This document shows, in pieces, positions 33,901 through 64,000 of a stretch of DNA of 64,000 bases (positions within the stretch are counted from its first letter, which is position 1; each line of letters opens with the position of its first letter). The DNA is from Antedon mediterranea. Lineage: Eukaryota; Animalia; Echinodermata. The position numbers and the translations under genes were made by a program. The stretch is from contig NC_092677.1 of assembly GCF_964355755.1 (NCBI RefSeq), forward strand, positions 12,112,101 to 12,176,100, given 5' to 3'. The notes under the pieces are model-generated. The model was not told the origin of the DNA and made no database searches. It saw nothing but the letters and a program-made list of their open reading frames with translations.

Positions 33901-36900
33901 GCAGGAAATTTCCTGCTTTATAAGCAACCATTCCTGCTTTGTACACCATAGCTTTTGGAGGCGTGCCTTTATAACTATGCCTTTTGTTTGTTAACATTTT
34001 TGATTGGTTGATTTGTTTTATTATGTAATTTTGTGACTTATATATGTTATCCTTTGTTACAATTCTTTTCACCTGATGATGGGCTATGCCCGAAACATGT
34101 CGTTAAAATAAATCTATATTGAGGCAGTTTTAACTTATTTGATCTTGATTTTTATATATATATATATATAAATGGCTAAAGTTCAAAGGATCAGTCACCT
34201 TAACAGCTTTCAGATTGCATACATGTGTATTCAGCCATCAAAATATAAATAAACTATGGTGTGGTGTCTATTTATATCGCTTATTTTACCATATAAGTAC
34301 CACAACCATTGGTATTAAACTTACCTTTGTAACATCCTAGAATTTCAAAATTCCCCTGACAAATATCTTCTCCAAAAATATGTGGATATATATATATGAC
34401 TTTGGCATATACAGGAAGAGTGAACATATTGGTAACGTGACAGTTTGTGCTTGAACCTGGAAAAACCTAAAAGAAAATTAAACTAATAATCAGTAAACTC
34501 ATTTGTAACATGTAATAAATTAATCATGTTATATATTATTTTATTATTTTATAAAATATTCAAGATTTAGGAGAAAAAACAATTTAATTTTATTTTGTTA
34601 TGTTTATGTTATATGTACACATGTTTATATTTTCAAGATTTTACAAGTAAAGAATAATTATTATTACTGTATAATAATAACTTTTTTCCTACTAAATTAA
34701 TTGTTAATATTGTGGTAATTAATTAGTTAATTTTAGTAGCATATCATTATTAAATGCATTAACAAATCCAGGTTGCTGGGACACTCATTGCTTAGGGTGG
34801 TTGAGGCCATTAATTTCCCTGGTTCTTGCACTGCCTTTCTATGCATGGTGGCTCACGCGTTGCTGAGTCACTTTGGGCGAGTCACTTGTGGAGCTTTTTT
34901 TTCCTTTTGTATTTTACATTTTTTTTGTGTGTAAGGCTTTTATATGTTTACCGTATATTAACAATTGTAAATGAGTGCCCCATTTTGGCAGTTATGGCAC
35001 TTACATTTTTTTGTATTTATTATATTGTTGATGCTTTATGGAAATAAAGATACCGATATATATAAATTTGGCACCACTATTAATAATTCATTTGAAATGT
35101 TAGTGATACTTACTGTTGTTTCACAATTTATGTTACTAATTTGGTTAAAGCTAGTACCGTCCACACTATAACCAACTTCATAGGATTTTGAACTATTTGT
35201 TTTTAGTCCTGTTACTTCTGCTAAAGTTTTGAGATTCAAATGTAATGGATCATATGGGGATTGTGAACACTGTTGTGTTTGCCCATGTTCCAGCTCCAGG
35301 TCCTCACTGCAGAGGTCTGTTAAACATAATTTAATTATTAATTATCTCATAATGAAAACATTTTAATCAATTTTAAATTAACATCTAAACAATTGTATTA
35401 AAAAAATAAATGATAACATTCTGACACAGTGGCTATTATATAACACCTATATAAATTCCTGTCATTTGATTGGACGAATGTGGGTCACATGGCGTGCAAT
35501 AGTACGCACTATTCAACGATCGTTAAATAGTACTTTTTGAAACATTTTTGTGTACGAAAAAAAACGTCTAGATGTTATATAAAACAAATAATGAATGTTT
35601 TGTATTCATGTAATGGTACAAATAATGGCACTTGGTGAATGATGAAAGGTTATATCAACTCGGCTTTGCCTCGTTGATATAACCTTTCATCATTCACCTC
35701 GTGCCATTATTTGTACCATTGCACTCATAAACATTCATTATTTGTATATTATTCAACAGATCACAATTTTATAATATAATTTATTTGACATATGACTATG
35801 AAAGAGAACATTTTAATATGACTATAATACTTCCAAATATCATAATGTATTACAGTTTAAAAAGTTAAGTATTTAAGTGCTGACCGAAGGGATGACCGCT
35901 ATGATTTAAGGGTCATCTAAAATAACACTGTACGTCTGAATCCTTTTTCTATAATATAAGTTTACTGATTTTTCACGGATGGTAATTGTTAAGAAAATTC
36001 CTCATTTTCACATAAAGTCATATGGTTTCAAAATGAATTTAAAGTGTTCATTAAAAAAATATAAAAAACTATCATAAATTAAATACTAAATATGAATACT
36101 TACCATTTGATTTAATTCCTGAAATTAACAAGTAAAATATTTGTATATAAATAAAAATGTTTTTAAATGATGATAATAATAAAACCAAGAATACAATTTC
36201 AGAATTCTTTTCCCAAAGGAATGACGACAAAAAAAAAATTATATAAAATATATAAATATAAAAAATATATAAATAAAATTATTGTTGATATAAAGTTTGC
36301 ACACCACATATATTAATTCTGAAAAGAACTTTTCAGAACTAATACGTGGTGTACCGCAGACTTTTTATCAACATTTGATTACACCATGCAAACCTTTAAA
36401 CAATAAAATTATTAATTAATAATATAATCATAGTAGGATTGCGATTGGTGCATACATGTTTAGGTCATGTACATGTTCACATATAGATTCAACATAAACA
36501 ACGCTCCTCTAGAAATTGCACATTAAAACTAGATTTGAACTCGTCACTTTGACGAGTTGGTTATCCGCACGATAAACGTCACGCCTACTACGTCCCTGGA
36601 TAAGTTGTTAACCACAATTTAGCGCGTAGTAAAATTGCACGCACAGTAAAATAGCCAATCAGAACTTAGTCATATTTGTCCTGCTACATTATAGCAAGGA
36701 AATAAATGATTTGGGCTATACCAAACTCTGTTTACAGTATATACTGTATAAACAGTATAATCTGTATACATATTACATACAGTGTAGAATAGGTGAAATT
36801 AAGGGACCCGCCATTTATTCCTATTTTTAACATGGCGACAGTATCAAAATGAAACACTAAGATAGCAATTTCGGAAAAACATTATATCAGCAACAGCATA

Positions 36901-39900: not shown

Positions 39901-42900
39901 CCCTATCAAACTTGTTTGACAAAAAATTGTGATGTGGCCAAATATGGTAGTGATATGCCCAAATATGGTAGTAATATGACATCATGTCCATTTTTGTTAC
40001 ATAAGGTTTGATAGTGTAGACAGAGCTTAACACTTACTTATTTCACAAACAAATTTTTTTAATTGATTATCACAAGAGATAGTTTTCCATTTCCCGGTTT
40101 CTACAAACAATGCAACACAATTGGAATCCGCAATATCCATTGAACTTTCGTAGAAATCTGTAAGATCAAAAGTATTTTTTTCCATGTTATGGTTTTCTAT
40201 AAATTTTCGATTTCTTCCTTTTCCTCATATCTTACGCACTTATGTTTTATTAGCACTCTAAAAATATAAGCATGTTAATAAAGGATTTTCTGTTTCTACT
40301 GACATGAATGATATTACTAGGTTAATTATTACTGGGTTAAGTATTACTAGGATAATTATTACTAGGTTAATTATTACTAGGTTAATTATTACTAGGTTAA
40401 TTATTACTGGGTTAAGTATTACTAGGTTAATTATTACTAGGTTAATTATTACTGGGTTAAGTATTACTAGGTTAATTATTACTAGGTTAATTATTACTAG
40501 GTTAATTATTACTAGGTTAATTATTACTAGGTTAATTATTACTGGGTTAAGTATTATTAGGTTAATTATTGTTTGTAATAATAGCCCTTTGGAAATTGGG
40601 AGTTTGGCCATTTATCAGACATAGCAAGATTACGATTTGCAACAATCAGTGGCCAAACTATGTCATGTTAATTTCTTGTTTGTATAGGACGTGTTTCCTC
40701 ACTCCTCACCTCAACAAAGTTTTTGGTTTCTAGACAACTACCGAAATTCATTGAGCAGACCTAGTTAGATTGTCTGTGCATCGCAAATCGAAAACTTCTT
40801 ACTTACTTATAGGTATGCAGTGCATGGAGACACAGAAGACAAATATTTGTTGAGGTAAAGATTGTTACTCACTTTCATATTCACTCCATTCGTTTGTTCC
40901 AACCCATTCAAATACTCCATGGATATTTTTACTGTGATAGCCAATGAAAAACTCTTGAATTCTGTTCAGTTTCTGGTATGTTTCCCTTATAAACTCATTT
41001 TCTTCAAGTGAGCTTATCACAATCAAGTTCCCACCCCTTTTAATACAATATTTTTCTGCTCTATTCCAAGAAAATGTACGTGAACAGAAGTAATAGTATG
41101 ATGAGTTATATGCAATCCATCCAGGTGGGATTGAGTCTAACAAAAACAAAATGGAGGTAGTTAGAATTTACACAATAACTATATTGTTTGTTGTTTGTTT
41201 TCAAAAGACTGAGTGTACTTTTAATGTAGATTAAGTGCAAAGGTAGCATGTACGCTGCCTCAACAGTATCTTGGCAAAGATGTATGGGCAGGGAAGAGTG
41301 ACATTACAATTGTATGTTGGAGTGATTGTTCGTCACATTGCTTGAGTCTTAAAGAAGACACTTAACTTGCCTCTACACACAGGTGTACAAATAGGTCTGG
41401 AATGGTTAAAACAAACATGCGCTGAATACAACTGTAGGTGCAACATTCTAGAGCTGAATGTGTTCCTTATGTGTTTGATCAAATGACCGTGGTAATAATG
41501 TGAGACTTTGGGCACTAAGTGCTATTTAATAGCAAAAAAAGTATTATTAAATTATCAAATTGTATTATGTAAAGGAATGGAATGGAAACTCACATTTGTG
41601 GCAAATTCCTACTCTAATACCATTATCATGATCACAATTCAAAGTGTTCAATGTATCATCTTTATAATAAACACAGTCATGTGAAAAAGCACTTTGCAAC
41701 CCTACAAGATTATACAAAAAAAAGCTTATATCAGATACAATGACATAATTTTCGGCAAAGGCACATGGCGAATTAAATAAAATTGTTTACTTTATATATT
41801 TCAGTATATCTTTATTCAAAAAAAGTTAAATGACACAAACAGCCGATGGCTGAAACCGTAGTCGTACATTATAAATATAAATATACAATCATGATAAAAA
41901 CAGGTAAAATATAAAATATATAAAAAAGCAGATCATGAAAATAACATTACAAAACATTAACTACATTTAACAGTCTAGCTATAGTAGGAACAGGTGATTT
42001 CTTAAATCGCTCAGTTCTGCCAAACGGAATACGAAGGAGGGGGCGAGACCGAAGGCCGACATCAAGTTCGCGACAATGAGGGAGCATAATCCGAAATATG
42101 TCAGAGGCAAGAAGTTTCTCACCAAAAGACAACACCAGACCCACCCTCCTCGTCGCAAGCGATGGGAGGCCGGCGATCTTTGTGTATATCTGAAAGAATG
42201 AGTGTCTTATTCTATGATCGCAATGATCAACAACTTTTAAGAATTAAAATATATATAAAAGCAAATACCTGGAGCATATATAAAGGGAACACGATAATTG
42301 TATCCATTCCAGAAATAAACATTATCTCCTTTCTTGCGCATTCCAATCAACAGCATTCCATTCCATTGATTAAATATACTATTATTTTTGAGCATGTTCA
42401 ATACAAATAGCTTGATATTGACAGAAGTAATGTGGACTAAATGTGAATGTTGACCCTTGCAATGGTCACTCGCTCTGTCCCAAGTAAGTGTATCATTTGT
42501 AAACATGTGAAAACATTGATTCTCAAAGCTAAACCAACCAGGAGAGCATTGACCTGTAAAAAAAATAAACAAAATTCATTTTCAAAAATTCCTTTAATTG
42601 TTGGTATAGATTTTAAATATTGATTTTGCCGGGTTCATAAAGTCCCCCAAAGCCCTTTAAAATTTCATAATAAAATATAACTTTCAGGCTCTTCTCTCGG
42701 AATGATACATTTTTTGTGATAATGTGATATAATGATATACTTTTATATTTAAGAAATTGACCTTTGTATCGGAATTCAAATAGGTTCACAAACTTGACCC
42801 AGAAAGTCCAAAGGAGAGTTTGTCCAGATGTTTTAATGACCATTTAGTTTATAATAGAATCCCTAAAGAAAACACTTAGCTTAATTTTGTGACTTTCCCA

Positions 42901-45900
42901 TCGTTAAACCAGGAGTGATCGACACTATTTAAGTACAGATTTGACAGTGTCATCCATCACAGAAATACCTTATTATACCGTTAATCACTCCCACTTAAAC
43001 ACCCCTGGATCAACTTAGGACCAATCGTTACCCTCACAGATGATGTAATGACATTATGCAAATGAACCGAGCCAATATACTCCCAAGTTTCAGAAGGGCC
43101 CAGACACACCTCACAGCCACTTCTCCAGAAGCAGACTAACACACTTCACACCTCACCGACAGCATCATTGATTGTCCGTTCCTTATCTATACTTATAGTT
43201 GTATATTGTACTGAAGTATTATACTGAATAAACAATATAGTGTTACGACAGTCAAGCGAGTTAGAGTCTTTCATTAGTACCTCAACAACCCAACATTATA
43301 TTACATGGTGGAAGACCCAAATTTCATAAGGAACGGAGTGAGAAAACAAGGAATAAACACTTAACAAGACACGAAGACGAAGACAAAGACAAAAATAACC
43401 ATATTTGTTTGAAAGGAGAGAAATTTACTTTGACTCAAAAGACAAGCTGAAATTATATTTGAATGAGATCGAGACAAGCAGAAATTTTATCAAATTATTA
43501 CCATTGGATGAAGACAAAGAAGATAATCGAGGAAGACACAAAAGACAAGCTGAAATTATATTTGAATGAAATCGAGACAAGCAGAAATTTTATGAAATTA
43601 TAACCATTGGATAAAGACAAAGAAGATAATCGAGGAAGACCCAAGAAGAATCAAAACAGAAGCAAGCGGACAAGAACTGTTTCGTTTAGAGACTTTCAAC
43701 TTCACGCCGTTTTTTTTTCGATCGTTTTTTTAACATTTACTTTTTTGAACATTGATGAACACCTTTCGCATTTTTTTTTAATTCGTTGTTTGAACATTTA
43801 AACATTTTTGAACACTTTTGCATTCTTTTAATTCATTTTAATTGGATCCGAAGCATTTGGGGTAAGTCGAAACCATTTCGAATTTTGATTTGTAACCTTT
43901 ATTGAAAAAGTGAGAGTTTACATATACACTAAATTGTTTTTGATATTTGATTAATAATTAATATTATAAAGTATGGTCGACGTTGTTGATAACGAAGTAA
44001 TTTTAAATGAGCCCGTCAATCCTCACCCCGTGCCCCACCTAAGACAAACCGATTTCCTTCCCAAAAGATATGACGGTTCCATAACCGATCACGACCAATG
44101 TAGTGCACATTACTTATCGTTTACCGACTACCTTGAGGCCCACACGTTAGAAAACCCTGTAAACAATGCCCAATTAATTAATGTAATAAGTATTTTTAAA
44201 CGTAGCCTTCAGGGCCAAGCTAGACTCTGGATTGAGGGAAAGCAGTTCGATTCACTAGAATCCTTAAAAACCCAATTCATCAACAGGTTTAGTAAAAACA
44301 AATCAATCTATGCGCACATAAGAGAATACGATTCAATTACATACACCACTGGCGACAACGCCGAAAAGCACTTAACCAAAATCAAACAAGCCGCAGACAG
44401 AATTGGATACGCTGACCAGCAGATAAAGAATAAATTTATTTCGACCCTTCCACCAAAATGTAGAGCAGCTGTAGCCATGTCCACCCCAATCGATGCCACT
44501 ATTGAAAATATTGTAAATAGCACACAAAATTACCTTGACCTTTCCGTAGATGATGCCACACGGGAAGTTTCATTCAATATCAATAAGGAAACAGATAGGC
44601 CTAATAGTCTCGAATCGCTCCAACATGAGATAAATTCTCTCAAGTTAGACATGGCCACAACAAAACGATCCCTTAATGATGATACTCGACGCTCACGTTC
44701 CCCCACCCGAAATTATATCCCAAGACGAAACCGAAGCCCAAGCCCATACAAACCCCGATTCCAGACCCCACCGACCCCAAGATATAGACAACCTCCCCCA
44801 ACCTGTTATTACTGCGGGAAACCAGGCCACATAGCAAGGCACTGCCGACAACAAAACCGCTCTTACGGAAACTATCCCCCGCCATACCCATACCAACAGT
44901 CAAACAATTACTACCCTAGCCACCAGCAGGATTTTTAAAAAGGGGACTAGATGCCGCCTATAATCTGGCCCCCCATACTAAATACGACAATTTTAAGGCA
45001 AAATACTTAGGGAATTCAGATAATATTGATTTGTTACTTAACGACAGAAATTACGTAAAAGGAAACTTACCAGATGGTAGAAATGTTTTAACTTTATTTG
45101 ACAGTGGTTCAACTAGAACTATAATCTCACAATCGTACGTTAATTCCTCACTTTATTTATCGCGTTTAAAGCCAGTTAAAGTGAACACAACTAAATTTAG
45201 ATTAGGTAACGGTGACTTCTTATATGCCAACCACTTAGTGCAATTCGAATTATTTATCCAAGGACACAAATTTAAAATTTCAGCATTAATCGTTAAAAAT
45301 TTGACAGGTATTGACCTGATACTTGGAACCGAAACATTGTCTGAACTCGACGGTACTTTAAATTTTAAGGAAAACACATTTCGCATTAGACCAAAGATTT
45401 TTAGCTTTCGTCCAGTACACAAGATTTTTCTTAAACCCGGTGATACTAAAACAGTTAAATTAAAAGGAAGGGTTCCCGCCTTCGTACGCAATTCTGATGT
45501 TGTTCTACATGCAACCACCCATATTTCAAAACTTTGTCCATCAGATATGTTAGTAAAATTACATAGAGGAGAAACCAACATTGATATCACTAACAACACA
45601 AACAGAAACGTATCTCTAAATACACATCAACCTATCGCGAGCCTTCACTTAAGCAACCTTGTAACAGTTACTAACGACCTACCAATTGATAGAATAAAGT
45701 TGACCAATGACAACGCAAACAAGTACCCACATTTAGAACGTACAGACCCATTGCTAACTTTAACCGAGGAAGAAATAATTAGAAAACAAGTTGATTTAAC
45801 AGACAGCGTTTTAACACATAGAGAAAAAGAAGATTTGTATAAAACATTACAACAAAACAGAAACGCATTTTCACTTTATGGTGAACTATCTAGCGGCCCA

Positions 45901-48900
45901 AACTTCAAAGCTGACATACACCTCTCTAACGATGAACCATTTTTTATTCGCCCATACTTCGCGACAGACAAAGACAAACATGTTATTGAGGCCGAATTGA
46001 ACAAATTAGTCAAACTAGGAATCTTAGCAGTAGGACACCAATCGTATACTTCCCCTGTCCTTCTTGTTTCAAAGAAAAATTCAAAAGATAAAAGAGTTGT
46101 CACAGACTTTCGCTATCTAAATTCCAGGATAAAACGTATTAATCACCCATTCCCATTATTGGCCGAAACTTTGAAAACAATAGGTAACGCTAATGCACAG
46201 ATTCTTAGCGTAATTGATTTGAAATCAGCGTTCCACTGTGTACCATTAGCCGAACATGCCAAACAATATACAGGTATAGCTTCATATCATGGTGGAAAAC
46301 ATTATTATTATAAGAGATTAGCACAAGGATTAAACGTTTCACCAGGTATATTTCAAGCAAAGATTGACGAAATTTTAAATGAAATCCCAAATTCTAGAGA
46401 ATTCTGTATCGCCCATCATGATGATATTATTTTATTTAGCCAAGACAAATTTGCTCATAAGCAGCACCTTGTTTCCGTTTTACAAGCCCTACAATTAAAT
46501 GGTTTTAGAATTTGCCCAAAGAAATGTAAGTTATTCAAGAATAAAGTGCAATATATGGGACACACCATCCTGATTAATTCTTCAGGACACGCATGTATCA
46601 CACCATTAGGCGACAGGTGTGCAGCTATCCGAAATTTGCCAGTCCCACGAACCCATAAAGAAACTAAACGATTTATTGGTGCAGTAAATTATGTATCCCA
46701 TTTTTTCCCTCAAATACAATCAATTTTACGTCCGTTACACACACTCGCAAGCAAACGCCGAAAATTTTGTTGGTCTACTGAACACCAGAAAGCATTTGAC
46801 GAAATTAAACATTTAATGGTTAAACCACCAACTCTTCAAATGCCTAGAAAAGAAGGTAGATTTACGCTATATAGCGACACTTCAAGAACCGCAACAGGTT
46901 CATATTTAACACAAACAGTAAACGGTAAAGAACACATAATAGGTTATTATTCCAAAATCTTACCACAAGCCTGTCAACGATATAGCGTCACAGAACTAGA
47001 GTTATTTGGACTTTACATTAACGTTTCAGCATTTCGACATTTACTAAAGGGTTGCGAATTTGATGCATTCGTAGACCACTCAGCAATTGTACAAATTTGG
47101 AATTCAAAAGATCAGCCATGTACACCCCGTCTACAGAAACTAATATTACGATTGTCCGGATACATTTTCCAAATTGGTTATAAGAAAGGAACTGAATTAG
47201 TTTTAGCAGATTTCCTCTCCCGAGCCCCTCGTGATGACGATTCCGAAATTGATCAAGTTGTACCCATTGCATTTAATATTACAGAGACTGAATCCTTTAA
47301 CCCGATTACAAACACATCTACTAGCAGACCAGTAACAAGGTCATACGCCAAGAAAATGGGAATAAATATACCTGACCTACATAAACCCAAACCCAAACAA
47401 ACGCCTGTCATTAATCAAAACCCAGTGACAACAAACACGCGACCTACACCTCAACCTACCGCTACACCACAGATAATCACGAGACAACAAACAAACGCAC
47501 ATCGATCACCGCCTATCATAACGCCACCTATCGTAACACCACCCCCAATACGTAATGTAAACATTCGACAACCTCCAGAGGAACGACTAGTAGACAAAAG
47601 TAAGCAAAACAAAGATACTACACATCGAAACGTACCAGTTGAATTGTATACATCGCCCAAACCACTAGTACCAAACATAACTGAATTTAAGTCAGCACAC
47701 ATCCCAAAACAACAAGACTTATATAGATTAATGGATGTTATTCAAAGAAAGATAATTAGAGATTATAACCTCCCAGTAGATGTTAAACAATTACGTGTTG
47801 AACAAGAAACTTCACCATTTTTTAAGCCAGTTTACGATTATTTAGTTCATGATATCCTTCCAGCTGATAAGAAAGCAGCTCGTGCAGTTCAGAATAAGTC
47901 AGAGCAGTACATATTGTGCAACGGTTTACTATTCCGTTTATTTTTCCAAGATAAAGGTGGAGAATTTGTATTGCAATTAGCTGTTCCTGAAAACTTAGCA
48001 GAGACTGTTATTTCTCAGTATCACGACAATTTGTTAAGTAGCCACCAAGGTACGATGCGTACTTACCTTACTATTAGGAAATTGTTTTACATGCCTCTTA
48101 TGTTCGAGAAAGTCAACAATTATACCCAAGCGTGTCTTAGATGTCAACAATTTCGTCCCAAAACCGATAAATTACGTCCTTTACACGATCGAGTAACAGC
48201 AACTTACCGTCCCTTTCATACACTCAGTCTAGATTTTAAGAGTATGCCAACTTCACCTTCAGGTTTTAAACATATTATGGTAGTATGTGATGAGATAACT
48301 AGATTTTTGATTTGTGTACCTTTGAAATCCATTGATGCCGAAACAATTTGTGAAGCACTAATTCAAAAGGTCATCAGTATTTTTGGACCCCCATCTCGTC
48401 TTATTTCAGATGCAGCAACCTCCCTTACAGGAAAATTATTAACACTATTATGTAACACCCTTAATATTGATAGGAAAATCATCAGCGTCCACAATCACGG
48501 TAGTTTACAAGTTGAACGTCATATCCGCACCGTATCGGACCTGTTAAAGGTCAACCTTAACCAATTCGGAACAGATTGGGTTAGATTTGTATCAACAACA
48601 TGTTATGCCTATAACTCGTTTTCATCCCCACATCTAGGAAACCACTCCCCTTACGAATTAGTTTTTGGCCGCCAACCTCCAAGTTTGACCTCATTAGCAT
48701 TTAACCCTATTTCAGGATTGTCTCATTCCTATGAAGAATACTTTGAACATCTCAAGAAGAAATTTCAAAACATTTCACAGACAATGCTACAATTACAGCG
48801 AACACAACAAAACGTCCAAAACTCAAAGATTTCCCAACGCTTAGAAAAAAGTCCAATTTACTCAGTAGGACAACTCGTATATTTATACAAGCCAACATCA

Positions 48901-51900
48901 TCATCACTAACAGCAAATTCAAAGAAAATCGCCGCAGAATGGGTCGGACCATTAGTGATTCATGAAGTACTAGACAGAACACACTACATCCTAGCGACGA
49001 TTAAAGGAGAAATACTTCGCGACGTATTCAATTATAACAGACTGAAACCCTGTTTTATGAGAACACCCAAAGAACGCAAAAATTTTACACATCTCCAAAA
49101 ACTTAAACAATTGTTAAATGAACCCACTGATGATAATAACGAGAAAATCCAAAACACCATTAATGTAGTAAATGACGAAACCAATGTTGAATTTGTAGAC
49201 GAACATGATAGGACACCCACCCAATTGCAATCAGATACCCTTACACATCCAACTAAGATAGAACCCCTTAACTTGCAACCTTACATTGACTGTGTAGAGA
49301 ATAACATGGGATTAGCAGCCCCATTCCAAATGAAAGAGGAACAAATTAAGGAACAAACTAATCTAATTATGACAGCACCTAATGATTCAAGTATGACATT
49401 AAACCGAGGTAGATTTAAAGCAGGACATTTCCAAGTTTTAGTTTCGTATTCTAAACCGACTTCAGCCAAACGCAACACTGATAAAACAAAACACGAATCT
49501 AATGATCGCAAATTTTGGTGGAATATTGACAGATATAACGATACAGATAAATTGATTAAAGAGATCATTAAAGATAAACAGATACCGATAAGTGGATCGC
49601 CAAAACGATTCATAAAACGTTTGTATAATGCAACGAATTACTGATTTAATTTTTTTTGCAAGATTATTTTTAAATTACGACATTTGCTAAATTAATGATA
49701 GCATAGTCTACGTATTTTTGATGAGATTTGTTTAATAATGATGTGATTTCAGTTAAAAGAGAATTGAATTTATGTTTAAGTATTGATTTTGTAACGAGTT
49801 TGATAAAGATTAATTTTGAATTTTGAATGATCGATATATTGAGATATTGAAAAGAACGACAATCATTTTGTAACAAATATTTTGTTGAACCTTTGAGTCG
49901 TTAATCTCAAGCATTAATTAATTGATATACAATAACAGGAGATTTTCTTAGTACTTTTAATTTTAATATTTTTTAAATTGAGTACAAAAGTCAAATTTGT
50001 CGATTGATTGAAATCGTAATTACCTGTGAATATAAATGCTTAAATCGATAAAGTTGTGACGATAATGATATATTGTGGATAAGTTTGTGTCAACGGGACA
50101 CACACATTTGTTTCTTTAAAGTTTTAAGTGATTGAGTTTGATATTTTGATTTTAGGCTAATCAGCCACAGTTTCTTGAATTTTATGTTTCGATTTGATTG
50201 ATTTATATTTGAAGGCCATTAGAACGCGATAAGTTGTCGCGCTATTTGATATATATTCATTGTACATATTCTTTAAGTTCTTTAAATTTGACCAATTGAC
50301 GTTTGATTAACGCTCGAGGGAGGAGTAGAGCCAATTACGAGCTATATATATAAACAACCGGATGGGCAGACTATAAATAAGTCGCACGAGCGTATCAAAT
50401 ATACAGTATTTACTGTCGAATTATAAGTTAATTTACTTTTGTGAGATTGTTATAATAGTTGAACTTGAAATTTTATTGTTTGAGTTTTATATCGTTTATT
50501 TAGTTTAATATTGTTTATTTTAAATACATTTTAATTTTATTTATCTTAATTTTAGTCAATTCCCAAATTTCCCCCTAAAATGGAATCCGAAAAGCTTGAC
50601 GTTACACAGTTATGCTTAAAACACAAAATTCAAATGACGCCCCTGTCCACAGAATGTGCCCTTATAAAGAAGATAATCCTTTACCAAAGCGAACAAAACG
50701 TAATTCTCCATATTACCAAAATGATGCCATTTACTTTAGATTCCTTGAAAAGAGTTTTATTATTCCTTTGCGACATCCGTCCAGCAGACCAACTGACAAA
50801 CCTCAAATTAAATACCCTTTTACACATTGGCAGTTATTTATGTTGTTTCGACAAAATGTCCTCCCCCATTATAGACTACATTTGGAAGCATAAGAGTGAA
50901 CCAGCCCTACTTGACTTTTCCACAATCGACCTTTCCATTAATCTAGACGGCATCGCCACTTGTATACCAAACACACATGAATTTCACAGACAACATATTT
51001 ATTCTATGACCCTCCTGCTCTTAGCAATTACAAAAGACATCAAAGCCCCACAATGCACAACATTTTTTTCAAGAGTCCGACAACAAACAGGCATCATACC
51101 CCAAGACGAATTAAAACCTAGCGAACACTCACCATTTGGATATGTTGTAACTAAATATAAGAAAAAACTATATTCGCACATTCGTAACATGCAGTACCTG
51201 GAAAATAAATACCAAGATACCCCCTGCCAAATTTGTCAATGTAACCCCGAAATTAAAAACTTTCATACTGATTGTACAATCAACAAATGCTGCGGAACAT
51301 TGTTTCACAAAAATTGCCAACAAATAAACAAGAAATACCAATGCTTGAATTGCGGTATGGTATATTTGAATGAGATGCCTTACACTGCTACCTACATGTT
51401 GGACGACGGCACACTGTGGACTACATCCCATTATTATCGATTATTATATGATTGATTTCAATTTATCCTTTATCAATTTTTTTTCTATTTCAAATAATTA
51501 ACGAGAGTCGACTTCTTGACCGATGTTTTTTAGGGAAACCCAACCGTTGTGATGTTTATATTTCGGTAATCCGAGTGTAGCATGCCTCCAAAGCAACGGA
51601 CCCACAATTATGTCGATCTTGAAGAACACTTTTGTTTTTTTTATATACATTTTTTGTTTCAAATTTTATATAAATTCCGGAATTTTTATACCAAATTCAT
51701 TTTTAATTTTATTTTTTTTAAGAGAGAGAAGAGAGAGAGTGAAAGTGATAAGGTTACACTTCAGAGTCAATGGTTTTGGCTAACTCAATTTTTGCATATA
51801 TGTATAATGTTTTTTTTCTTTTATATAACTTTAATTTTGCATGCCACTATTATAACCATTTTTATATGTTAAATAGATTAGAAAAAAAAAAAGGGAAACA

Positions 51901-54900
51901 GAGGGATGTGATATAATGATATACTTTTATATTTAAGAAATTGACCTTTGTATCGGAATTCAAATAGGTTCACAAACTTGACCCAGAAAGTCCAAAGGAG
52001 AGTTTGTCCAGATGTTTTAATGACCATTTAGTTTATAATAGAATCCCTAAAGAAAACACTTAGCTTAATTTTGTGACTTTCCCATCGTTAAACCAGGAGT
52101 GATCGACACTATTTAAGTACAGATTTGACAGTGTCATCCATCACAGAAATACCTTATTATACCGTTAATCACTCCCACTTAAACACCCCTGGATCAACTT
52201 AGGACCAATCGTTACCCTCACAGATGATGTAATGACATTATGCAAATGAACCGAGCCAATATACTCCCAAGTTTCAGAAGGGCCCAGACACACCTCACAG
52301 CCACTTCTCCAGAAGCAGACTAACACACTTCACACCTCACCGACAGCATCATTGATTGTCCGTTCCTTATCTATACTTATAGTTGTATATTGTACTGAAG
52401 TATTATACTGAATAAACAATATAGTGTTACGACAGTCAAGCGAGTTAGAGTCTTTCATTAGTACCTCAACAACCCAACATTATATTACAATAATCAACAG
52501 GATTTTGTAAGTTTTTATTGATTGATTGTTTTTATAATTATACTATGGTATATAGTATTAAGTATACTTACTTATAGGGCTCCAAGCTATATGAAAAAAA
52601 TAATGAATAGATTTATATAAATTAAGTAACATTTTATTTTTTAAACATCATATTAGAAAGCTTTTGCACGAGCATGTAAACTTTGTTGCTATTTCCCAAC
52701 ATGCAAGCTCCACCCACTTTGTAAACAAATCGATCTGGGTGTGCGCAGGTATTACGAAAAACCTTAGCTATGTGCGTTGAGAACCTTACTTCTGAAAAAG
52801 GGCGTCAATAAAAAGGTTTAACTAAAGGGTATTGAAACATGGAAGAATCATACATAGCTTTACAATCAAAACAACTTACAAGCTTCATTAAAAGCCCATT
52901 GGCTTAGATTTCCATACACGAGTTTGTATTTCGCAATCCATTTTCCCACTAGTACTGAAAACCTGGGATGCAATTCAGGATGCCATTGAGAAATGTTAAA
53001 ATTACTGTCAGTTGTCTGTCCAATGACAGCATAATTGTTAGACTCAAACAAAGAAACCACAATTCGGTAAATAACTGCAGGGCCATTTGTAATATCTTCA
53101 TTGTACCAATTTAGACTGTCTTCGGTGATTGTTGGACTTGCGGTTGGAATCTCTAAAAAAAGTATTTAAACTATTTAAAAACATTCATTCATTACTACTT
53201 ACTGTGTTTATTGAACCAGCAAGCACTTTTTTTTATTATAGGAAGAGGCTCAGCTTGTTGATACTATACAATATTGGATACCTTGTTGCTTGATCATAAC
53301 AAAAATATTACACCCAAAGTGGTCTAAACCTTTTTAAAAAGAATTTTTACCATTGTGTTCATCATGTAAAAGATTGTCTTCATTGTAATCTGTAAGAAAT
53401 TATTAAAAATGAAGTACAGAAGGAAACAACAAAGCAGGGTTTTAAAATGGATAACATACTGTGATTACTGTATGACGGGAATAAGCTAAATTAAAACTTT
53501 GGTAAATATATTGTTAAGGCAATTGTAAAGTATAATCACACAATCACTATTGCTTCTTACTCTATCAAACTAGTTTGACAAAAAAAAGATGTGCCCAAAT
53601 ATGGTAGCGACCTCATTGTGTCCATATATGGGCACATCACATTATTTTGTCACATAAAATTTTAATAGTTTAGACAGAGATTTGGTTTATTCAGAAGGAT
53701 TTTTTGTAGTATAGCACCACCTATTTGAACAAAAAATAATAATTCACCACAATTCTTGACAATTGATTTAAAAACCCAGAACATAACAATGTCATAGTTA
53801 CCAACCGTCTCGCATTGTGCGGGACGGTCCCACATTTTTAAGTTATTTTTAATGAAACACATGCATGACCGCATTTTTGTCACGCAATTAGCAGAGGTAT
53901 ATGCATCATTGTTCTCACAATTGAGAGGAAAATGCATTCAAATTAATTGGTATATTTAAAAAGTATAGAAAATTATGCGAGTATTTTATTATTATTATTT
54001 TTTTTTTTTTTTTTTTATTATATTCATATTATACCACCACATACTGTATATCAACAAAAATATTAATTTTTTTCCGTTATCGCTCGCCGTGACGAAGGAT
54101 GGGCCGATAGCAGGCATGTGACAATCAAGATTACTAATTGCCATTGGTCAGTGGATCAGTTCAATTTTTACCCTCCAAAAACAGAAATTTATAAATAAAA
54201 TAAATTCAAGAATCAGCATGAAAATAATGTTGAATTACAAATTACAAGTATAGACTCAAATTAGGTTTTAAAATAATGCATGTACTAATGCTACAGTGTA
54301 GTCTGTTCCACATTTCAAATCTTTCGAAATACAAAACTGTATCATGTTAAATTAAAATGTGCCCCTTTTTGAGCTATGATCATAAACTGACCTATATCAT
54401 AAAAAAACAAATTAAAATAAAGTTTCTTCTTACGTATTTCGCAGCAGAAAGCAGATTGAGTATCAGTACATGAAACATCAGTCCAATGTCCATCGGTAAC
54501 AGATAGCCTAGTACAACGTTGTCTATAGCCATCACTAGGAAACAAATCTGAAAGATCACAAAGGGTAAAGGCCTTAACTCCCTATTTTGTTCTGTTCTCA
54601 AAGACAATTAATTCAGCAACAGAATGATGCCGGGCTAGGCCTATAGCTAGCACACGTTACTGCTGTTTACCAGCTGGTCCTACAAAAGTAAGCCAAAATA
54701 GGTCTCTACGATAGGATATTTAAGTAATTCTATTAATTATGTAGTGTCACTAGTTTTAATTGCCATAGACCTTTATGTCATTTTAACTAAAGTTGTTTTA
54801 ATTCGTATAATGGTTTTATACATGTATGTACTGCGTCTATAAGCAATCATTGATTGGATATATGGCGCCTTATAAATGCTTTGATTATTATTATTATTTT

Positions 54901-57900
54901 TTTTACAAAACGTCCAGAATTACTGAAAAGTTAAACACTAACCTGGACATATGAAGCGAACTTTATAGTCACTACATATGTTGTCGCTTTGCTTTGCATT
55001 TGTACAACCAAGACCAAATTTAGTGTTGCAAGTGATGGTTTCTCCAGTAGTAGTGTAAAGTTGACCATCAACAGTTTCACATTCAATGTCTGTTGGATGC
55101 TTACACATTTGACCAGGGTTCCCCTAAAAGAGGGATTTAACATTATACACATTATATTATATACTTTTATTTTGTATTAAATGTACATTTTCAGAACTTG
55201 TTTTTTATTTTGTTAAAGTCAAATGGCATATCATTTTCTATAATTTATAAATATAATTCATTTCTAAAAAAGTATTGGCAACGTATGATAAAGTAATTGA
55301 AAATAAAACATGCACATACTGTTAATCATTACTTACATTGTACAATCTGTAAACAAGTTCCCAATCTCCACCATTACTGGGATCGTCTGTATCAAACCAT
55401 GGAGTCCATGGGTCTATAAATAAACGGTAGCATCAGCAATAATTACACTACATATACAGTCTAATATCTACAACAACTATCTAAATCATGGTATCACTAG
55501 GATAGCTTTGGCCTCAATTTTCCATGGCAAACTAAACAGCAATGCATTATTGAACATGTAGTTTATAAAGTTTTTCAATTTTTACTTACGTTTATAAGTA
55601 CTCCATTCATTGGTGCCAACCCATTCAAAGACATTTTCAATGTTCTTATGATGATATCCAATAGAGGTCCAAATAACTTCAAATTCAAGCTGTTTAAAGT
55701 GATTGCTTACAAATTCATTCTCCTCCCTAGAGCTGATTACAACAAGATTGCCACCATACTGAGAACAATATGAATCTGCCTCATTCCAAGATATTTCGTC
55801 AACTCCAAAATAGTATAGTGATGAGTTGTGAGAGATCCATCCTGGCTTAAATTCTTAAAAGTTAAATGTATTTTCCCCAAAAACATGAAAACAAAATAAA
55901 GATTAATAAAATAAGACTTTGAATATTGAATTTTGCAGTCTTTACAAAAAAATAATGATTTCACTTTATAAAAAGATCAAATTAAACCAAAAACCATTTG
56001 TCTGACAGACAATTTGACAATTTTTTGCTTTAATTACGGTTTTTTCAGGTAACACAACATTAAAATGGCAAAATAAAATAAAACAGATTTTTCAGGGGAC
56101 AATAATTATATCTTTAATGTAAATAATCAAGAGTAATTAAATGAAAAACAACTCTTTGAAATGAGACTTGGTTTACGCATAGTGTAGTTTAAACCATCAT
56201 GTAATTGGTGAATAACTTGCTGTTGGATAGGTATAAATAAGAATTTTTAATTGTTAATTAACTAATAACCAAACTGATAGGAGTGAGTGGCCGGCCGGTT
56301 AAGACAGTAGAACCGTAATTACGTAGCCATAATATCGGCAAGAGTTCACCGCTCACTTGCTCTATGGTTCTGGTTGTAAAACGAGTCTTCTTGGATAAGG
56401 ACTATAAACCAGTGTACACATATAGCTCATCTACATTGTAAAGAACCCAGTGCATCTTTCAAGATGAGTAGGGTTTACCCTGGTGTACTTCTAGTACACT
56501 CACAGCCAGGGATTATAACTGGATCCTTTGGGAGACCAGTGTTTGCCTGAAAGGATCACTCAGTATAAATAAAAACATAAATAATACTACCATAATTGCC
56601 TTGACAAACTGGAATGCCTGTGTGGCTATCTGTACATGAAATGTTTTGTAGTGAAAAATCATCCTCAACATTTACCAGAACACAATCAGCCTCATGTACA
56701 TCAATTGTCTGACCACAATGCCAATCTGCAGACGAATTAAAAATACAATTTATTCAGGATTACCACAACAATGATAATAAAAATACTAATGCTTCCAGAA
56801 AGAATAGCTGAAAATGATTTTAAGGTTTGTTGATTAGTGTTATTTATTAATAAAAGCTTTCAAATTGAAACAACCTAAGACGCCATGTTGTTGTCCAGAA
56901 AATGTCAGGGTTTTGATTTTTTTCCTTGTCTTTTCTGAGATTCAATCACCTTTATTTCCATTTCAATACATAATTTTGTTTATATAATCATTTTCATTAA
57001 TAAATGTCTTTTCAACAGCAACTGCTGATCCGTCATCTGGACCTATAGTAGAATCGAGCAAATTGGGTCTGATGACAAAACTTAACTTATGCAAATAGTA
57101 CATGCATATCATGACATCATAAGCCCCCTAGGTCGTCACAAAATTGAAAGTTTCCCAATAGCTTAATCATTATTATAGTAGTGGGACAATACAAATATCA
57201 AATAAATGTATTAACCTGGAGCATGTGAAAAATTTACAGCTACATTCTCATACGGAATATGTCCTTTCCAGACAAAAGCATCCTCGTCTTTTTTCATACC
57301 AACAAATAACCAATTGGCCTCTTCCATTTTCTGGGCTCCTAGCATGAGCAGTACAAAGTTTTTAATGTCGACGGACGTGATATGAGCTAAATGTGATTGT
57401 CTTGCCTTACAGTATTCATCTGCCTCATTCCAAGACATCCTTTCATCATTAATGTGAAAACACTGATTCTCAAAACTCATCCAGTCAGGTAAGCATTGAC
57501 CTAGGACAAAATTAATTAAATTTCAATTCCAAAAATGTTCATTTTAATTTTATTGTATAAAGTACTTCAAACACCAGGACCTACTAAAAGTGTATGACGT
57601 GGAATGAATGAAATGGAATGGCTGAAAAGGTATGGAAAGTGTATTTTTTCTATGTTTTCGTTTACAATGTTCATCACAGTGTGCAGTCTGCATACACGCT
57701 TGCTACTATAATTGCACTCTTGTTCGGACGTAGCAACAAATAAGCGCTTATTTTCATCCTAGGCCTGAGGGCTGAGGCATAACCGTTCGGATGTACAGAA
57801 TATGTACCGCTGAACCATGCAATAATAATCGAATCATGGCCTGAAATTAGGTTTAAAGGAGAATGATTGGATGAAGGATGAAACAATATGTATGCGGCAG

Positions 57901-60053: not shown

Positions 60054-63000
60054 ACTAGAAAGCCACTCCGAGAGGGCATACCTCCGCCTACTGTAAAATT
60101 CTCCTACATAAGATTTCTCCGGTAAAAAAAAAAAAATATATATTTGTGCGTGTCTTAATGCTGTTTGTGATTTAGGCTAATTTTATTACAAGCATGTGTA
60201 TGCGAGTTTGGTGTAATTGTTATGAAACAAGCCTTTCAATTAACAATAGCTTCAGTCGACTAACAAGAGAACAGCAACGCGAAAATCAAACAAGTGAATT
60301 TGAAAAGAAATAGGTTTTTTAAACTACCCGCATCAAAAAACTTGCACATTAAATCTAATTATGTTTTAAAATTACAAATCACAAATTATAACACTTGCCT
60401 CTTGTACAAAAATGAAGTTTTTTGGACAAGTAGTTCTCGAGAAAATGCAATTTCAGTTTACTTGTTACTTTAAGACTGGGTGCCGGCTTTTGAAAAATTC
60501 TGTCCTATCTTTTAACACTAGCAGGTCTAAAAAAGTATACTAAAAAGTGGTCCAGAATTGGGACTGTGGTCCCAAATGGTCCCAAAATTTAATGGAATGG
60601 TCCTTGACCACATATCTATATGTCTATTCATTTTGGTAAAGATCTTGTAATTACTTTTTGAGTAATCCTGCTAACAAACAAACAAACAAACAAACAAACA
60701 GACAAACAAACTAGCCTTCGCGCATAGCGCGATACTTGGCCAAATCAAAATTGGCCTTCTAAACAAACTTGACCTTGACCGATTTTAACCCGATCAAAGT
60801 TCAGTATATGTCATAAACCTCCCATTTAACATGAAAATAGAGACATAATTTCTCTAGATTTAATTATAAATCAGCCGTATAGGCCTAATTTATATACTAA
60901 TAAATATACTTGAACAAACAATAAAAAAAAATCTGATTTCGTTTCATTTCCCAAGGTGAGACTCGATCTCGGTAACTTAAATGCTGTAGACACCAGCACA
61001 GACCACCGAGCCATACACAACTGACTAACATTTGAAGAAAGATTCCTCTGTGTATTTACCATTGTGAGCGATAGAGCGATGACAAACACACACACAAACC
61101 GAACAATAGAACAGCAACGCGAAAAACACACTGGTGAATTTGAAGAGAAATAGGTTTTGTAAACTACTTGCATCAAAAAACCTGTATATTAAACCAATTT
61201 ATGTTTTAAAATTACAAATCACCAATTATAACTCTTGCTTCTTGTACAAAAATGAAGTTTTTTGGAGAAGTAGTTCTCGAGAAAATGCAATTTTAGTTTA
61301 CTTGTTAATTTAAGACTGCTCACCGGCCTTTGATAATTCTGTCCTTTCTTTTAACACTAGCAGGTCTAAAAGTAATTTTTAAAAGTGGTCCAGAATTGGG
61401 ACCATGGTCCGGATTTTAACCAAAATTGGGCAGTGTCGTCCTTGCACCAGGTGACATGTATGGTAGAAATTTGCAGTCATTCGAACCAAAACTGTGAGCG
61501 CTAGAGTGATGACAAACAAACAAACAAACAAACATACAAACAAACAAACAAACTAGCCTTCGCGCATAGCGCGATACTTGGCCAAATCAAAATTGGCCTC
61601 CTGACATTGACCCAATTTTCACCAAAAGTGTGTGTCTTATGCTGTGTGATTTAGGCTAATTTCACTACAATCATGTGTATACGAGTTTGGTGTACAGGTT
61701 ATGTAACCAGCCTTTCAACGAACAATAGCTTTAGTCGGCTAACAATAGAACAGCACGCGGAAAAAACACACGGGTGAATTTGAAAAGAATTAGGTTTTGT
61801 AAACTACTCGCATCAAAAAACCTCTATATTAAATCTAATTCAGTTTTAAAATTACAAATCACAAATTATAACACTTGCCTCTTGTACAAAAATGAAGTTT
61901 TTTGGACAAGTAGTTCTCGAGAAAATGCAATTTTAGTTTACTTGTTAATTTAAGACTGCTCACCGGATTTTGATAATTCTGTCCTATCTTTTAACACTAG
62001 CAGGTCTGAACATAATTTTTAAAAGTGGTCCAGAATTGGGACCGTGGTCCAGATTTTAACCTAAATTGGGCAGTGTCGTCCTTGCACCAGGTGACATGTA
62101 TGGTAGTAATTTGGAGTCATTCGAATCAAAACTGTGAGCGCTAGAGTGATGACAAACAAACAAACAAACAAACAAACACACACACAAACCGCACCAATCA
62201 ACATACTTGGCCAATTTTCAATTTGGCCAAGTAACAAACTAGCCTTCGCGCATAGCGCGATACTTGGCCAAATCAAAATTGGCCTCCTGACATTGACCCA
62301 AATTTGCACCAAAAGTGTGTGTCTTATGCTGTGTGATTTAGGCTAATTTCATTACTATCATGTACACGAGTTTGGTGTACAGGTTATGTAACCAGCCTTT
62401 CAACGAACAATAGCTTCAGTCGGCTAACAATAGAACACCAACGCGAAAAACACACGGGTGAATTTGAAAAGAAATAGGTTTTGTAAACTACTCGCATCAA
62501 AAAACCTCTAAATTAAATCTAATTAAGTTTTAAAATTACAAATCACAAATTATAACTCTTGCCTCTTGTACAAAAATGGAGTTTTTTGAATAAGTAGTTC
62601 GCGAGAAAATGCAATTTAGGTACTTGTTAATTTAAGACTGCTCACCGGCTTTTGATAATTCTGTCCTATCTTTTAACACTAGCAGGTCTAAAAATAATTT
62701 TTAAAAGTGGCCCAGAATTGGAACCGTGGTCCAGATTTTAACCAAAATTGGGCAGTGTCGTCCTTGCACCAGGTGACATGTATGGTAGTAATTTGGAGTC
62801 ATTCGACCCAAAACTGTGAGCGCTAGAGTCGAGTGATGACAAACAAACAAACAAACTAGCCTTCGCGCATAGCGCGATACTTGGCCAAATCAAAATTGGC
62901 CTCCTAAACAAACTTGACTTTGACCGATTTTAACCCAATCAAAGTTCAGTATATGTCATAAACCTCCCATGTAACATGAAAATAGAGACATAATTTCTCT

Positions 63001-64000
63001 AGATGTAATTATAAATTAGCCGTATAATTTATATACTAAGAAATATACTTGAACAAAAAAGACGAATAATAAAAAAAAAATCTCATTTCGTTTCATTTCC
63101 CAAGGTGAGACTCGATCTCGGTAACTTAAATGCTGTAGACACCAGCACAGACCACCGAGCCATACACAACTGACTAACATTCGAAGAAAGATTCCTATGT
63201 GTATTTACCATTGTGAGCGATAGAGCGATGACAAACACACACACAAACCGAACAATAGAACAGCAACGCGAAAAACACACTGGTGAATTTGAAGAGAAAT
63301 AGGTTTTGTAAACTACTCGCATCAAAAAACCTGTACATTAAATCTAATTATGTTTTAAAATTACAAATCACAAATTATAACACTTGCCTCTTGTACAAAA
63401 ATGAAGTATTTTGGACAAGTAGTTCTCGAGAAAATGCAATTTTAGTAGTTTACTTGTTAATTTAAGACTGCTCACCGGATTTTGATAATTCTGTCCAATC
63501 TTTTAACACTAGCAGGTCTGAACATAATTTTTAAAAGTGGTCCAGAATTGGGACCGTGGTCCAGATTTTAACCAAAATTGGGCAGTGTCGTCCTTGCACC
63601 AGGTGACATGTATGGTATTAATTTGGAGTCATTCGCATCAAAACTGTGAGCGCTAGAGTGATGACAAACAAACAAACAAACAAACAGACAAACAAACAAA
63701 CAAACAAACTAGCCTTCGCGCATAGTGCGATACTTGGCCAAATCAAAATTGGCCTCCTGACAATGACCCAATTTTCACCAAAAGTGTGTGTCTTTTGCTG
63801 TGTGATTTAGGCTAATTTCACTACAATCATGTGTATACGAGTTTGGTGTACAGGTTATGTAACCAGCCTTTCAACGAACAATACCTTCAGTCGGCTAACA
63901 ATAGAACAGCAACGCGAAAAACACACAGGTGAATTTGAAAAGAAATAGGTGGTCCGGATTTTTACCAAAAGTGTGTGTCTTAATGCTGTGTGATTTAAGC
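60054..64000 (-). mobile_element. Tandem array of a second Helentron-like (HINE) family, 620-850 bp units with (ACAA)n
   Basis: Units start on the + strand near 60709, 61551, 62237, 62854 and 63707 with ACTAG, hairpin TCGCG-catag-CGCGA and subTIR TACTTGGCCAA. Terminal IR TACTTGGCCAA...TTGGCCAAGTA near 62204-62233. Confidence 0.7.

Follow-up and report, generated by a model that had tools for sequence, protein, structure and literature searches.

An intact Ty3/Gypsy LTR retrotransposon of 9,767 bp, placed at positions 42723-52489 of the window (the whole 64,000-nucleotide stretch of Antedon mediterranea DNA that was analysed), carries behind its intact gag and pol a real third gene that is not env. 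This gene, ORF3 (50580-51455, plus strand), codes for a protein that bears a RING-like finger and could be placed in no family, as an earlier note on this DNA had proposed, and the profile, homology and Atlas searches uphold that description. The comparison with related elements suggests that the place behind pol may be a swappable slot served by shared splice signals, which is the best-supported new point of the analysis. Non-env third genes are already known; what is new here is a stand-alone RING-like ORF3 after pol, and no paper on such a RING ORF3 was found in the literature searched, with Repbase and most subscription journals outside its scope. In the preferred reading, held tentatively and at somewhat less than even confidence, ORF3 would be translated from a spliced RNA into an accessory protein that the element can do without; a helical region would serve for binding, and a RING-type finger would engage the ubiquitin machinery of the host.

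Structure and surroundings of the element

All parts of the element lie on the plus strand. The 5' LTR (42723-43305) has 583 bp, runs from TG to CA and has the target-site duplication ATAA just before it. A primer-binding-site-like sequence (43306-43323) begins with TGG directly after this LTR. The gag gene (43973-44938) codes for 321 aa with a CCHC zinc knuckle and is overlapped at its end by the pol frame (44920-49644), which lies in the -1 frame and codes for PR-RT-RNase H-integrase. The polypurine tract (51880-51906) ends directly 5' of the 3' LTR (51907-52489), also of 583 bp, which contains a poly(A) signal at 52411 and is followed by ATAA. The two LTRs are 100% identical and the 4-bp ATAA is duplicated on both flanks. 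The PR-RT-RH-IN order behind a CCHC gag, together with TG...CA LTRs, a primer-binding-site-like sequence, a polypurine tract and the duplication, is that of Ty3/Gypsy elements. Taken together, the identical LTRs, the ATAA flanks, the TGG of the primer-binding-site-like sequence, the polypurine tract and the gag and pol domains indicate a very young Ty3/Gypsy copy, intact as first described.

Several further features were observed within the element. The motif GGATTTTTAA at the end of gag, overlapping the pol frame (44920-44945), is a likely -1 frameshift site. The purine-rich 5' leader contains a 103-bp tandem duplication with 95% identity (43432-43637) as well as several short upstream ORFs. 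The linker between RNase H and integrase (47300-47700) is long and rich in Pro, Thr and Gln; it differs between organisms, with an in-frame 3-nt indel at 47600.

Minus-strand exons that were labelled by eye as C-type lectin-like and related flank the element on both sides (40865-42575 and 52866-55854), and discoidin-like exons were also seen by eye in the flanks. The lectin- and discoidin-like exons would suit an echinoderm. From the lectin-like exons on either side, the element seems to have inserted in antisense orientation into an intron of a lectin gene with several domains, as far as these labels by eye allow. Elsewhere in the window, a 595-aa open frame (32203-33990, minus strand) codes for a reverse transcriptase of a non-LTR retrotransposon that by eye resembles CR1/L2, and a 15-bp unit forms a tandem array (40267-40630) that is open in both directions. 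Positions 60166-63950 contain five related units (620-850 bp), all of which have an (AAAC)n tract and share a conserved 73-bp motif; they are possibly a tandem rolling-circle or satellite element.

ORF3 and its zinc finger

ORF3 begins 935 bp past the pol stop (49644) and ends 451 bp short of the 3' LTR. Translation of its 291 codons (the coordinates run through the stop) gives the frame without internal stops, in sense orientation between pol and the polypurine tract, that had been noticed at the outset. The claimed strong start context is AAAATGG, and the maximum 19-residue hydropathy of 1.11 agrees with the claimed lack of a signal peptide or membrane anchor. By chance, a frame with the composition of ORF3 would be open over 291 codons with p of about 1e-8. 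The codon usage of ORF3 (r of 0.63 with gag and 0.58 with pol) is as near to gag and pol as gag is to pol (r of 0.52). An env remnant or fusion glycoprotein was rejected as the identity of ORF3, which has no hydrophobic segment and no env family in Pfam; an SGNH or DEDDy hydrolase was also rejected, with no such family in the Pfam search of ORF3.

The N-terminal region (aa 1-215; 50580-51224) is predicted as helical at low confidence and belongs to no family found. It is followed by a RING-like C4HC3 zinc-finger motif (aa 216-258; 51225-51353), whose cysteines and histidine are exactly as first given, C216-x2-C219-x17-C237C238-x4-H243-x2-C246-x8-C255-x2-C258. Further possible zinc ligands, absent from the earlier note, are C221, H229 and C232. 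The third ligand is more likely C232 than one of the two adjacent cysteines, and the eight ligands C216, C219, C232, C237/238, H243, C246, C255 and C258 have the spacing of RING and RING-variant fingers. A loose C4HC3 pattern occurred in none of 100,000 shuffles of the ORF3 protein. Two other zinc domains were rejected against their consensus: in a LIM domain the middle ligand pairs are separated by two residues instead of the eight seen here, and the terminal C-x2-C pair of the ORF3 finger does not suit a C1 domain.

The C4HC3 RING variants FANCL, listerin/RINGv and NSE1 and viral RING ligases such as ICP0 and poxvirus p28 share with ORF3 the ligand order, the spacing and the arrangement of an adaptor region with a terminal finger. 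ORF3 differs from both the variants and the viral ligases in that no significant match in sequence or structure was found and the E2-contact residues are mostly missing. On a mapping of the E2 interface made by eye, I218 presumably fits. Four positions presumably do not: Q220, where a hydrophobic residue is expected behind the second cysteine, the tryptophan of the helix, the proline, and G259 at the linchpin. One of the five canonical E2-contact positions is kept on this mapping. RINGs that lose E2-contact residues can be inactive, according to the available text of PMC6487577. Because these residues are mostly replaced in ORF3, 'RING-like' is a fair term and 'E3 ligase' is unproven, and with about equal likelihood the finger is a partner or decoy RING or a ligase that works by itself.

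Sequence searches with ORF3 gave no homologue at E 0.001 in 1.84 billion representatives, and 0 of 239 candidates were homologues in a word-index search of a 5.8-billion protein set over proteins of 160-510 aa. A short-protein search with aa 195-275 returned no candidate. The whole protein had no usable match among the language-model neighbours of the Atlas, 0 matches in PHROGs and only three rows in NCBIfam (E 0.14-1.4); in Pfam no RING or PHD model scores, the top model being RH_dom (E 0.07-0.12). Rfam gave 0 matches. ORF3 was found in 0 of 42 metagenome stretches and 0 of 3 viral contig stretches, and tblastn against 29 pol-relative loci reached a best E of 0.09. The PDB sequence matches (best E 0.03; SspA and C2H2 fragments) were judged to be chance.

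In the Atlas, the top neighbours of aa 200-270 are unnamed Nucleocytoviricota proteins of 68-74 aa with scores of 0.91-0.92, followed by clusters of zf-RING_2, RINGv/listerin and FANCL_C at 0.87-0.90; a score of 0.9 is reached by 4-10 of 100 shuffled proteins, the shared features number 130-142 of 256 and the benchmarks are not made for parts of proteins. The ten best family-bearing matches of this segment belong to a single clan, the RING clan. The giant-virus and RING-clan neighbours are a lead and no match. The single-sequence AlphaFold models are of low confidence (pLDDT 42.4 for ORF3 and 49.6 for the isolated finger) and have a helical N-terminus and, in the isolated finger, a helix at aa 243-253 after H243. 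RINGs have a helix at the matching place. With the full ORF3 model, the best viral row of Foldseek was a Solumvirus RING-type protein (E 0.049) and the structure search returned generic helical matches (best Z 7.3, rmsd 2.4, 69 aligned). The isolated finger, itself a low-confidence single-sequence model, matched no RING structure (best Z 3.0). The earlier note had named the lack of a predicted cross-brace zinc fold as grounds against its reading; the low-confidence models gave no significant structural match to such a fold.

The C4HC3 order equally fits a PHD finger, and ORF3 could then be a PHD-like reader of chromatin or proteins that regulates transcription or shields the chromatin of the element without ubiquitin chemistry. 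The missing RING E2 contacts agree with such a reader, and F242-H243 and the aromatic Y253, two before the seventh ligand, are PHD-like by the consensus. On the other hand, only 8 residues, helical by prediction, separate ligands 6 and 7, no PHD cluster is present among the Atlas rows listed for aa 200-270 and Pfam gives no PHD match. Such a reader is distinctly improbable.

The slot behind pol and its expression signals

Named relatives of the window pol come from three organisms in 4 of the 120 rows listed, namely a sea cucumber (67% in RT-RH), a limpet (59-62%) and a nemertean. In a quick IQ-TREE of 79 rows, the window pol, the sea-cucumber protein and six other proteins fall together in a group whose branching is unresolved. 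The closest pol proteins have 70-74% identity and are without DNA context; the nearest relative with 3' sequence is L001, 66% identical in RT-RH. Among viral contigs one distant pol locus was found, and none by integrase; genome contigs contain two distant loci. Gypsy pol was also seen inside two bacterial metagenome-assembled genomes (L030 and L031), probably through contamination or misassembly.

The region 3' of pol was examined in 19 loci. In L001, a GDSL/SGNH-type ORF of 197 aa (L001:5217-5807) takes the place of ORF3 behind pol; its location inside the element is presumed, as the L001 contig stops before any LTR. The ORF matches Lipase_GDSL_2 at E 1.3e-5, under the curated cut-off, and is unrelated to ORF3. 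Upstream of the third ORF, the DNA of L001 and of the window does not align beyond the acceptor described below. Four to five tandem 40-nt repeats and a ACGTCACGTCAC motif were also observed upstream of the L001 ORF. The earlier note had held that absence of ORF3 from sister elements would count against it; in its nearest relative with 3' context the slot is present but filled by an unrelated gene. The more distant L003, L004, L005 and L007, which extend 2.6-5.2 kb 3' of pol, have no plus-strand third ORF of more than 95 aa, and in L010 the ORFs at this place reach only about 100-113 aa. In L028 a cut-off ORF of 203 aa lies behind pol (L028:2926-3534); an RKR site and, behind it, a hydrophobic stretch make it env-like by eye, and it has no Pfam match. 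The remaining loci, with at most 2.1 kb 3' of pol, show no third ORF. A fusion of pol and ORF3 in relatives was rejected: the 1,949-aa protein P0141 is a gag-pol, and no pol relative carries the finger motif.

Third ORFs of this kind are known from the bdelloid rotifer LTR retrotransposons Vesta and Juno, whose non-env ORF3s code for a GDSL esterase and a DEDDy exonuclease in the available text of PMC5408684. The likeness lies in family-specific third ORFs that are gained and lost in the env position, and the L001 cargo is of the same GDSL/SGNH type, so that it extends the rotifer-type esterase ORF3 to this Gypsy clade. The difference is that no RING or zinc ORF3 appears in that text ('ring' and 'zinc' have 0 occurrences), whereas the window ORF3 is no hydrolase and has no homologue.

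Predicted splice signals are also shared with relatives. The predicted donor GGG|GTAAGT (43859-43867, plus strand), 111 nt upstream of the gag ATG, is the top-scoring donor of the whole element by a simple weight matrix, and the relative L002 has GGTAAGT 113 nt upstream of its gag start. A comparable leader donor is absent in 5 other relatives with recognisable gag. The predicted acceptor TTAATTTTAG (50546-50555, plus strand) lies 24 nt upstream of the ORF3 ATG, and in L001 the identical 10-mer ends 21 nt ahead of the start codon of the third ORF; it is absent in 12 other loci. Donor and acceptor motifs are each single-copy within their own element. By shuffling, the donor motifs were obtained in 2/2000 and 18/2000 cases and the acceptor motif in 3/2000 each, for motifs that were chosen after inspection, with one relative behind each, in an AT-rich region. 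The window contains 4 copies of the acceptor 10-mer against 1.2 expected, one of which opens an apparent host exon (26818-26827). Env-type splice signals thus appear to be conserved, the leader donor with L002 and the acceptor with L001, and the pair would likely yield an env-style subgenomic RNA for ORF3. Among the sequencing runs, none of which is registered as RNA, no splice junction was listed. The gag-pol-ORF3 layout and the predicted subgenomic splicing resemble those of env-carrying Ty3/gypsy errantiviruses in the available text of PMC13524379, in contrast to which the window ORF3 is no glycoprotein.

ORF3 might instead, or in addition, be expressed as a self-contained cassette from its own promoter. 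The candidate (50292-50407, plus strand) is CpG-rich (CpG o/e 1.92) and contains CCAAT, TGACGT, a second CCAAT and TATA boxes at 50343 and 50372, including TATAAAT, with CAGT 32 nt downstream of the second TATA, an early-promoter spacing found in 37/2000 shuffles. No ATG occurs from 50404 to 50580, and the motifs fall within the stretch of low contig depth considered below. This route is doubtful, as it leaves unexplained the acceptor common to L001 and the leader donor common to L002, and no good donor lies between the CAGT and the acceptor.

The predicted splicing also recalls CERV of the C. elegans element Cer1, which in the available text of PMC10309623 is made from a spliced mRNA, has a C4 loop, is essential for RNA export and shares its N-terminal half with Gag peptides. 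Like ORF3, CERV is a non-env ORF with a cysteine finger in the env position of a Gypsy element, and it is spliced and regulatory; ORF3 differs in its eight-ligand finger, its own strong ATG and its seemingly optional nature. On this model, ORF3 from spliced RNA would aid the nuclear exit of unspliced genomic RNA, the finger serving in RNA binding or assembly. Its position, predicted splicing and cysteine finger are those of CERV, and an element whose splice signals are strong must have a way to export its RNA. Sister copies are nevertheless abundant though most appear to be without ORF3, whereas CERV is required for export in the same text, and the search of 1.84 billion representatives gave no sequence link. 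This export role is distinctly improbable, though supply in trans from ORF3-bearing copies would rescue it.

Sister copies and the possible role of ORF3

Contigs of sequencing runs were compared over 42400-51600 of the window, a range that ends short of the 3' LTR and of the cassette's right edge. Depth drops at about 50200-50380 and remains reduced over ORF3 (contigs of 4 of 13 runs listed). Single-contig depths, which are no copy numbers and come from 32 listed pieces of about 2,900, are 786 over ORF3, 2,526-2,627 over pol and 60 at the insertion junction in run X1; 55 and 143-269 over ORF3 and pol in X5, a ratio that matches X1; 370 and 471 over ORF3 against 2,887-4,638 over pol in X6; and 2.7 against 13-16.5 in X9. 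A loose contig end lies at 50264 in X1 and the long X9 contig ends at 50206. A short GC-rich hairpin (50225-50241) was observed just ahead of the apparent point of divergence of the sister copies.

ORF3 DNA is present in runs of three organisms (A, B and C). Its depth relative to pol is about 30% in organism A and less in B and C, over the pieces listed. In organism A, 796 nt of ORF3 are without a single difference in these pieces; a contig of organism B aligns over 469 nt without gaps and differs at 19 positions (96%), and a second contig of B has 49 differences and 10 gap letters across 377 nt. ORF3 is thus multi-copy and homogeneous in organism A. The depths suggest that about a third or fewer of the sister copies carry ORF3. 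As contig depth is no copy number and the listing has 32 pieces, they are read only as an ORF3 that is multi-copy and probably absent or replaced in most sisters. The concern about sister elements therefore stands in part, since most sister copies seem to depart from the window sequence ahead of ORF3; this partial absence would mark ORF3 as optional instead of false. A cargo carried by a minority subfamily would also not be needed for transposition.

The same depths (about 30% of pol in organism A or less in B and C) and the relatives without ORF3 would suit a neutral passenger, a gene piece recently captured, possibly from a large DNA virus, in one young subfamily. The identical LTRs mark a copy too young for visible decay, and giant-virus proteins are the nearest feature neighbours of the finger. 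However, a recent capture should show a close match if its donor was sampled, and no donor gene was found in 1.84 billion representatives. The codon usage that fits the element, the gap-free 96% copy in a second organism and the position of ORF3 in phase behind an acceptor-like signal likewise argue against a passenger, which is unlikely.

In the preferred reading of an accessory protein, splicing of the LTR transcript would join the leader donor (43862) with the acceptor (50555), in the manner of retroviral env, and the resulting RNA would be translated into a soluble ORF3 protein. The slot after pol would be a plug-in site with cargo exchanged between lineages. To the benefit of the element, the RING-type finger of ORF3 would engage the ubiquitin machinery of the host; in wider terms, it likely engages ubiquitin or chromatin machinery. 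At its most speculative, the target of the helical N-terminus would be a restriction or silencing factor of the host, and that of the finger an E2 or a partner RING, which it would recruit or jam. Viruses are well known to counter host silencing with proteins, and little of this kind is known for animal retrotransposons. The ligase with a counter-silencing function, as the earlier note proposed, is an attractive hypothesis. Its boldest form, in which the env splice slot is a plug-in port and a giant-virus-derived RING ligase counters host silencing or restriction in the manner of Vif or ICP0, supplied in trans to copies without ORF3, is quite unlikely. A small probability falls to none of the ubiquitin-accessory, passenger, PHD and CERV-like readings.

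Extra coding capacity is also described for other elements. The giant Gypsy element Burro of planarians carries domains of ubiquitination and apoptosis, including an AIR1 'RING Zn-finger' motif, BIR and MATH, in the available text of PMC6431247. There, however, the domains lie in a polyprotein of about 5,000 aa or an upstream ORF of 30-kb elements, whereas the window ORF3 is a stand-alone 291-aa gene behind pol in a 9.8-kb element. Plant LTR retrotransposons also have extra ORFs (PMC7264820, in part), and accessory domains occur in retrotransposons generally (PMC6338049, in part). In Troyka the Gag finger differs, and the part of PMC12440569 at hand mentions no comparable ORF. The survey of Chary and Hayashi reports Echinodermata without env-carrying Gypsy elements in the available text of PMC13524379, in whose seven supplements, as text, the terms RING, zinc, PHD, SGNH and 'additional ORF' are absent.

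The family is young and multi-copy, and its copies with and without ORF3, which seemingly coexist, offer a natural comparison for the benefit of the gene. The shared splice signals and the unrelated cargo suggest how lineages without env may reuse the env slot. Such reuse bears on the reported lack of env-carrying Gypsy elements in echinoderms.
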